Shown in pieces: positions 3,527-4,055 of a stretch of 14,003 bases of DNA. The position numbers and the translations under genes are program-made. The stretch is from a virus (taxonomy: Duplodnaviria; Heunggongvirae; Uroviricota; Caudoviricetes), in IMG/VR virus record IMGVR_UViG_2778261395_000005; one strand, 5' to 3'. The first letter of the stretch is position 1. Each line of letters begins with the position of its first letter. Under the pieces are notes generated by a model, which saw only the letters and a list, made by a program, of their open reading frames with translations, was not told where the DNA came from and did not search any database.

Positions 3527-3687
3527 CACTTCATCTCCTGCGGCGGCTCTGGTAGCGGCATCCATCTGATTACATCGCAATCACGTAGGCTGATGTCATC
3601 TCCAAGCCATCCTTGACCTTCAGACCAGCATTGCACGTAATACCCGCCTTCGGCGTCAACTACGCACCACTGCGCGTCGTTCGGCAT
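3526..3687 (-). CDS. DUF551-like phage protein, 53 aa from the first ATG, probably 5'-truncated
   Basis: C-terminal …RWMPLPEPP is the characteristic DUF551 ending; the domain-like sequence (WLSCSERMPND…) starts upstream of the first in-frame ATG with no alternative start codon, suggesting loss of the native 5' end. Confidence 0.5.
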   Translation of the reverse strand: MPNDAQWCVVDAEGGYYVQCWSEGQGWLGDDISLRDCDVIRWMPLPEPPQEMK

Positions 3688-3892
3688 TCGCTCACTACAG
3701 CTTAACCAGCATGCAAAACAGCAGATCGCACTGGAGTCACAGAGAACCCAGGAAGATATCAAAGTGGCTGTTGCGGATGATGATTGCGCTGTTCGTATCG
3801 TTCCTTCTGGCGCAGTTAAGCGGTTGCACGAATACGCGAACGGTATACGTGTCGGTGCCGGTCGTTCCGTTACCAGCCAGTCTGACGGATGA
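3641..3892 (+). pseudogene. Possible i-spanin (Rz-like) C-terminal remnant with no start codon
   Basis: Open frame without ATG ending …AVADDDCAVRIVPSGAVKRLHEYANGIRVGAGRSVTSQSDG; weak resemblance to Rz C-termini; the lipoprotein ORF begins inside it in another frame, as in overlapped spanin pairs. Confidence 0.25.
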
Positions 3893-4055
3893 AACACCCC
3901 AGCCAGATTTACCCGACCCGTTTACGTGGGGAGCCAGCCTTAACCTGAATGTTGCGTTGTTGTCAGCGTTAGCACAGTGCAACAGGGATAAGGCTGATAT
4001 CAGGACCTTTGAGAAAAACAGGGCAGCACAAACTAATGGCACGATTAAACGTTGA
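3777..4055 (+). CDS. Putative o-spanin-like (Rz1-type) lipoprotein; start ambiguous (ATG 3777 or ATG 3711)
   Basis: Signal-like segment MMIALFVSFLLAQLSGC with lipobox LSGC, followed by a proline-rich stretch (PVVPLPASLTDETPQPDLPDP) and one further Cys; same strand as late genes and upstream of the terminase genes. Confidence 0.45.
   Translation: MMIALFVSFLLAQLSGCTNTRTVYVSVPVVPLPASLTDETPQPDLPDPFTWGASLNLNVALLSALAQCNRDKADIRTFEKNRAAQTNGTIKR

Follow-up and report, generated by a model that had tools for sequence, protein, structure and literature searches.

The interval from 3641 to 4055 is, at a probability of about 0.93, one of two internal deletion scars carried by the lambda-B prophage of Escherichia coli B and its wild relatives, and reflects ordinary prophage decay. 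The scar joins the 3′ part of a leftward early gene, which carries a DUF551 domain, to the 3′ part of a rightward Rz-type i-spanin gene, and a complete Rz1-type o-spanin gene follows. The original prediction, made from the letters of the DNA, had read the interval as a deletion junction, and this reading is supported: a non-spanin match for the lipoprotein and colinearity of the region with an intact phage were both looked for, and neither was found. It had also invoked a single large deletion, which is real but is not the sole one, as a second lies at 7849-7850.

The window (the whole 14,003-bp stretch of DNA that was analysed) is 100% identical to positions 786534-800536 of E. coli B REL606 (NC_012967.1, RefSeq coordinates) and comprises ybhC and, at the lambda attachment site, the defective prophage published as the 12.1-kb “lambda-B”. 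According to PMC4395058, which cites Jeong et al. 2009 and Studier et al. 2009, this prophage occupies attB in REL606 and BL21 and is shared across the B lineage. No difference separates the element described here from that of REL606 and BL21, as it lies beside ybhC at attB-lambda, is 100% identical and has att cores 12.1 kb apart. Two exact copies of GCTTTTTTATACTAA, which we take to be the lambda att core sequence, occur in the window 12,091 bp from each other (0.01 expected by chance); this spacing matches the published 12.1 kb and so places the feature inside the documented defective prophage. The coordinates of the elements discussed below are collected in Table 1. The order of the ASCH and DUF4752 genes in the early-left region recurs in ST104, PA28 and other lambdoid or P22-like phages. 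Rightward of the 182-aa ORF, RefSeq annotates the small and large terminase subunits and a truncated portal-like gene, and the right part of the prophage holds a 3′ fragment of a tail-fibre gene, a tail-fibre assembly gene and acyltransferases.

Table 1. Coordinates of features in the window, with strand and the basis for each assignment
Feature	Position	Strand	Basis
ybhC	1-1284	-	RefSeq
Left 15-bp lambda att core, prophage left end	1331..1345	.	Exact copy
Lambda-type tyrosine integrase, intact	1419..2489	-	RefSeq
Excisionase, intact	2467..2685	-	RefSeq
Early-left ASCH-domain gene	2965..3249	-	RefSeq; PHROG 625
Early-left DUF4752 gene	3242..3526	-	RefSeq; Pfam DUF4752, E 5.6e-36
3′ remnant of DUF551 gene (stop and ~59-60 codons, whole domain)	3526..3704	-	Pfam PF04448; alignment
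Deletion junction 1 (TA common to both parents, within imperfect 7-of-8 match TA[T/A]CCAGC, 3703-3710)	3703..3704	.	Three-way alignments
3′ remnant of Rz-type i-spanin gene, codons 69-130 of 130	3705..3892 (codon 69 starts 3704)	+	Br_167 Rz identity; PHROG 214
Complete LysC/Rz1-type o-spanin gene, 92 aa	3777..4055	+	Pfam PF23793; PHROG 456; Br_167 identity
Lipobox L-S-G-C	3816..3827	+	Read from sequence
61-aa ORF 3′ of spanins (WP_000113283.1)	4036..4221	+	RefSeq; PHROG 12811, E 1.3e-39, function unknown
182-aa ORF (WP_000762846.1), moron-like position between lysis and terminase modules	4354-4902	-	PHROG 30882, function unknown
Deletion junction 2 (truncated portal gene fused to 3′ part of tail-fibre gene, TA microhomology)	7849..7850	.	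Br_167 comparison
Right att core copy, prophage right end	13422..13436	.	Exact copy

The junction was resolved by aligning the window with DUF551 genes (A_5 and PhiR12_1) and with Rz genes (phage SfV and the Br_167 prophage). The window reads ...TTCGCTCACTACAGCTTA-A-CCAGC-ATGCAAAACAG, the DUF551 genes read ...TTCGCTCACTACAGCTTA-T-CCA(A/G)C-CATCCG, and the Rz genes read ...ATAGAGGCTA-A-CCAGC-ATGCAAAACAG. Given these comparators, the last base that belongs exclusively to the left parent is 3702 and the first that belongs exclusively to the right parent is 3705. The SfV Rz gene matches the window from 3703 on, and DUF551 or Ea22-type genes match it up to about 3704-3710. The alignment to an intact lambdoid phage that had been suggested for mapping the breakpoints therefore puts the break at 3703-3704. 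The microhomology comprises 2 bp, and could extend to 8 bp if the left parent had an A at 3705, a position at which the parental base is judged from two non-identical relatives.

To the left of the junction, a minus-strand DUF551-like gene had been expected to lose its start near 3690-3720; alignment, together with a RefSeq pseudogene described as “missing N-terminus” at 3526..3708, bears this out and narrows the position. The homology stops at 3704 in the alignment, and the 5′ side of the remnant lies at 3702-3704. The retained codons, taken as 3529-3708, match positions 2-68 of the 68-position Pfam PF04448 profile (E 7.2e-11, 43.2 bits against a cutoff of 22). Relatives of this protein are 187-229 aa long and have the domain at the C-terminus; here the N-terminal part and the start codon are absent and 60 codons are left. 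Matches of at least 99% identity to the remnant occur in deletion-carrying genomes only, and the next best (97.8%) is the 3′ end of a 187-aa DUF551 gene of strain A_5 (domain at residues 127-184), located in an unrelated podovirus-like prophage. Past the junction the DUF551 frame continues without a stop through antisense-spanin sequence as far as a GTG at 3897, and the junction in this way creates a 123-aa minus-strand ORF (3526..3897) composed of the whole DUF551 domain and an N-terminus derived from the antisense of the spanin gene.

To the right, a start-less Rz-like frame had been proposed to run from 3641. The open frame is real, since the preceding stop is at 3638-3640, but the Rz homology begins only at 3703-3705, and the stretch 3641-3702 is the antisense of the DUF551 gene. 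The Rz fragment (62 aa) reads NQHAKQQIALESQ...SQSDG, is identical to residues 69-130 of the Br_167 Rz protein, and is 70% identical to residues 69-129 of SfV Rz. It matches PHROG 214 (“Rz-like spanin”) at positions 71-131 of 176 with an E value of 1.7e-19. The remnant alone has no Pfam match, and the full-length Br_167 Rz protein matches DUF2570 weakly (23.1 bits, under the cutoff of 26.6). Residues 1-68 of Br_167 Rz include the hydrophobic anchor LVIVAFFVTVIGSFIW, which is absent from the window; neither a start codon nor an N-terminal transmembrane domain (TMD) is present, and the first start codon in the Rz frame, a GTG at 3764, would give a 42-aa peptide that lacks the anchor. Because the start and the membrane anchor are missing, the fragment would not be able to work as an i-spanin.

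The lipoprotein ORF with an LSGC lipobox that had been noticed overlapping the Rz frame is real. The protein specified from the ATG at 3777 begins MMIALFVSFLLAQLSGC, and its signal peptide, read directly from the sequence, is MMIALFVSFLLAQ-LSGC-T, with Thr and no Asp at the +2 residue. The lipobox Cys (3825-3827) is the predicted lipidated first residue of the mature protein, which would start CTNTRTVYVSVPVVPLPASLTDETPQPDLPDPFTWGASLNLNVALLSALAQCNR... The choice among the Rz1, Cor and Bor families, put forward as a homology check, falls to Rz1/LysC: the protein matches Pfam PF23793 (LysC) with 66.5 bits against a cutoff of 27 (E 1.9e-18) and PHROG 456 (“Rz-like spanin”) with an E value of 1.8e-27. 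It is 74% identical to the Rz1 protein of phage SfV, and an identical protein is encoded in the Br_167 prophage. In the Pfam scan of the 92-aa protein LysC was the sole family at E<=0.01, with no Bor-type match, and all PHROG matches were “Rz-like spanin”, so that a Bor/Cor-type identity is unsupported. Database searches were otherwise uninformative: an NCBIfam scan of five ORFs around the junction gave nothing at E<=0.01 despite the RefSeq name lysC, PDB sequence searches with the o-spanin gave nothing meaningful, and PADLOC run on four local ORFs returned one sub-threshold, meaningless match only.

The start of the o-spanin gene has been annotated in more than one way. In REL606 the gene is called “lysC, Rz1-like lysis system protein” and is annotated from an ATG at 3711 (3711-4055, 114 aa); the identical gene in Br_167 is annotated from the equivalent of 3777 (92 aa), and the longer form is the one annotated for SfV Rz1. 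The most canonical signal peptide (M-R-MMIALFVSFLLAQLSGC) would come from a TTG at 3771, and 3780 is a further candidate. These alternative starts (3711, 3771 and 3780) all lie to the right of the junction, and the RefSeq start at 3711 is likely over-extended relative to 3777.

The o-spanin gene lies in the +1 frame of Rz, overlaps it over 3777-3892, and runs past the Rz stop at 3892. Following the architecture classes of spanins in PMC6139136, this arrangement is “overlapped”, as for P2 LysB/LysC, and is not the embedded type of lambda. The same overlapped +1 architecture is found in SfV downstream of its holin and endolysin genes; the window differs from SfV in that the i-spanin gene is without its first 68 codons and in that holin and endolysin genes are absent. 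Kongari et al. 2018 (PMC6139136) assigned SfIV and SfV to one small spanin group and to a “Mu” family that also contains Mu, D108 and APSE phages. The o-spanin of the window also resembles its P2 counterpart, as it matches PF23793 and as its gene, which begins within the i-spanin gene, extends past the end of that gene; the early region of the phage is lambdoid and not P2-like, and the likeness to P2 is through the Pfam family and the layout. The overlapped two-component spanin is typified by P2 LysB/LysC, from which Pfam took the name LysC. Remnants of spanin genes are also kept by cryptic prophages of E. coli K-12, namely rzpD/rzoD (DLP12), rzpR/rzoR (Rac) and rzpQ/rzoQ (Qin). These are Rz/Rz1-type genes in decayed lambdoid prophages, with other sequences and at other sites than those of lambda-B, and the lysis cassette of DLP12 is largely intact, whereas in lambda-B only the o-spanin gene is whole. 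With Rz codons 69-130 being all that is left of the cognate i-spanin, the o-spanin is by its sequence a member of its family, within a two-component system that is incomplete.

The distribution of the junction was examined by megablast against complete E. coli genomes. Among 5426 such genomes only 43 match at least 80% of 3200-4500; they match it at 100% over its full length, include REL606, BL21, NEB derivatives and wild isolates, and all carry the same prophage. In a search with 1285-13500 all 43 genomes were found to carry the whole 12.2-kb element with both deletions at ~100% identity, some with insertions of IS elements. The sources of these genomes include humans, poultry, pigs and seawater. 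Because the 43 genomes, wild sources included, carry both deletions, these did not arise in the laboratory and are fixed in a natural clade to which E. coli B belongs. Many other genomes have homology blocks that begin precisely at 3703, with further block edges, ends or starts, at 7849-7850.

The most informative of these other genomes is that of Br_167_kylling, in which a largely intact prophage (on L004) occupies the same ybhC site and encodes Int and Xis proteins with the same accessions. Br_167_kylling and Br_112_kylling match 3703-4350 at 100%, and do so without the DUF551 neighbour. Against Br_167 the block extends over 3703-7850, starting exactly at 3703, with 100.000% identity over 4148 bp. 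On the left side, positions 1-2776 are 98.1% identical to L004, and all but four of the differences fall in ybhC (BLAST): int is identical at 1071 of 1071 positions, xis at 217 of 219, and the attL spacer at 100%, compared with 96.3% for the host gene ybhC. Near-identical prophage flanks in differing host backgrounds would be expected if the B element is a deletion derivative of such a phage.

In Br_167 the equivalents of the breakpoints lie at about 6245 of L004 (the start of the DUF551 domain) and at 20001 of L004, and the ~13.8 kb carried between them has nothing corresponding to it in B. This segment contains ea22-like, TraR-like, exo, bet, gam, kil, cIII, ral, cI-like repressor, cro and cII genes, followed by O, P, ren, ninB/E/F/G, Q, two tRNA genes (tRNA-Asn and tRNA-Thr), holin, endolysin and Rz codons 1-68. 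The tRNA genes are located 5′ of the holin, endolysin, Rz (DUF2570) and Rz1 genes, which occur in that order. The loss of recombination, immunity, replication, Q, holin and endolysin genes that had been anticipated is thus supported, as all are present between the breakpoint equivalents. After the spanin genes Br_167 continues with 61-aa and 182-aa ORFs and terminase proteins that are the same as in the window, followed by a head, tail and baseplate region whose genes are complete. The early-left region is mosaic between the two prophages: in Br_167 the ASCH gene is missing, and the DUF551 domain forms part of a fusion with a dATP/dGTP pyrophosphohydrolase domain. As the early-left genes are mosaic and the exact undeleted ancestor is absent from the collection of complete E. 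coli genomes, the lost length (~13.8 kb) and the exact list of lost genes are estimates. The Br_167 prophage itself may not be fully functional; its tail-fibre gene (L004 40576-40845 / L006 14076-15167) is annotated as a pseudogene missing the C-terminus.

Decay from such a phage most likely proceeded as follows. The ancestor would have been a temperate phage of ~43 kb. Its int, xis, early and immunity genes would have been of lambda type, its lysis cassette SfV-like, and its late region of the myovirus type. Illegitimate recombination at the 2-bp TA microhomology would have joined the 5′ boundary of the DUF551 domain to Rz codon 69, excising ~13.8 kb between the leftward early gene and the rightward Rz gene. 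Left over are a headless DUF551 gene, an unanchored i-spanin fragment, and an o-spanin gene that is intact in sequence but separated from Q, its late promoter and its partner.

An intramolecular deletion is not the only event that could bring these two genes together, and recombination between two elements (a resident and a superinfecting or second resident phage) is given a slim chance of having formed the junction. Lambdoid phages are highly mosaic, the closest DUF551 sequence is the one in the podovirus-like prophage of A_5, and the early-left genes of B (ASCH, DUF4752 and DUF551) are unlike those of the best comparator, with 93.6% identity to L004 over 3254-3564 and no match over 3565-3702. 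Yet such accessory genes vary among near-identical lambdoid phages, as the differing neighbours of DUF4752 illustrate, and the two sides of the junction have the order and orientation expected of a single lambdoid genome. Moreover, int and the attL spacer to the left and 4.1 kb to the right are 100% identical to one and the same prophage at the same site. A single deletion within one prophage is the more parsimonious origin.

What the deletion would have done to the surviving o-spanin gene can be judged from its surroundings. The late promoter driving the lysis genes of lambdoid phages lies in the segment deleted here, and all genes upstream of 3703 are on the opposite strand (RefSeq). A simple consensus scan of 1-5500 detected no plus-strand sigma-70-like promoter site, which is weak negative evidence. 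With the late promoter and Q deleted, the upstream genes in opposite orientation, and no promoter-like site, expression would come about only through fortuitous transcription, and the orphan gene is most likely silent. The idea in the original prediction that the lipoprotein might still be made by itself finds no support. In lambda, Rz is an inner-membrane protein anchored by an N-terminal TMD and Rz1 is an outer-membrane lipoprotein; the complex of the two spans the periplasm by way of their periplasmic domains, both subunits are needed for disruption of the outer membrane, and Rz is cleaved in the absence of Rz1 (PMC5295617). By analogy, the o-spanin of the window alone should not be capable of carrying out outer-membrane disruption.

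The persistence of this gene could be read differently, as that of a domesticated gene retained because its product is expressed as an outer-membrane lipoprotein useful to the host. Nothing is missing from the ORF, its signal peptide or its lipobox, all of which match the functional phage copy exactly, and the element is ~100% conserved in the 43 genomes, whose sources are humans, poultry, pigs, seawater and laboratory lines. However, the 43 copies are near-identical over all 12.2 kb, obvious pseudogenes included, and since the pseudogenes are equally conserved this conservation reflects recent common descent and not selection. In addition to the promoter scan and the orientation of the upstream genes, which also count against domestication, the GAGG found in Br_167 9 nt before the ATG equivalent to 3711 has been swapped at the junction for unrelated sequence derived from the DUF551 gene. 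Retention for a host function is accordingly judged quite improbable. More improbable still is the full version of this idea, in which the gene would be transcribed at a low level, its product would reside in the outer membrane of all B-lineage strains (BL21 among them), and the domesticated protein would affect the envelope or phage sensitivity; as a weaker variant, the 123-aa ORF made by the junction might be expressed. The reading with the least standing, that there was no deletion and that the junction reflects faulty assembly or a phage layout that is naturally colinear, has nothing in its favour and is already refuted, as the junction is common to 43 independently assembled complete genomes, both flanking genes are cut mid-family, and no phage record matches at least 80% of 3200-4500 or covers more than 29% of the sequence across the junction.

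The lambda-B element was already documented, and RefSeq already flags the DUF551 pseudogene and the LysC gene. Added here are the breakpoint at base level, the microhomology, a near-identical and largely intact relative, and the second deletion; the current understanding of spanins and of prophage decay is unchallenged. Because the immunity, replication, Q, holin, endolysin, head and tail genes and half of the i-spanin gene are gone, the scars explain at base resolution why lambda-B cannot be induced, replicate or lyse its host, and Br_167 provides a near-identical, largely intact reference for the ancestral phage.

At the second junction the portal gene (DUF1073) breaks off after 7850, and Br_167 carries ~17 kb of head, tail and baseplate genes that the window lacks. 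The boundaries of the corresponding homology blocks (query positions 6565/6566) recur in many genomes. RefSeq names the truncated portal “anti-CBASS protein Acb1 family protein”, which seems misleading for a portal fragment. Further along, at ~8130, the coding remnant of the tail-fibre gene has a run of 8 G where Br_167 has 7, a 1-bp indel.

Several smaller features were noted between the spanin and terminase genes. Positions 4279-4319 hold the beginning (~41 bp) of a small-terminase gene that is Nu1-like and resembles the left end of phage HK639 (ATGGCAAAACCGGACTGGGAGGCCATCGA.ACGGCGTACC), after which the sequence is unrelated. The end of this homology at ~4319 was considered as a third decay junction of the B element and rejected, as Br_167 is 100% identical straight through. 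For the same reason the scar predates the decay in B, and is an older module-exchange scar of the phage lineage, in which a cos-type packaging module was replaced by one of Terminase_2 type. Upstream of the Nu1-like relic and after the 61-aa ORF (also present in the Br_167 prophage), 4228-4253 forms a perfect 10-bp inverted repeat, GAAGCTCCTT-TGAT-AAGGAGCTTC, which may be a terminator of the lysis operon or a relic of the cos region; it has no T-run on either strand and was not called by the terminator scan. The 182-aa ORF, likewise found in the Br_167 prophage, gave no Pfam, PADLOC or PDB sequence match, and its YRG...TTD...ENEF motifs, as an impression by eye, faintly recall the R-S-E ADP-ribosyltransferases.
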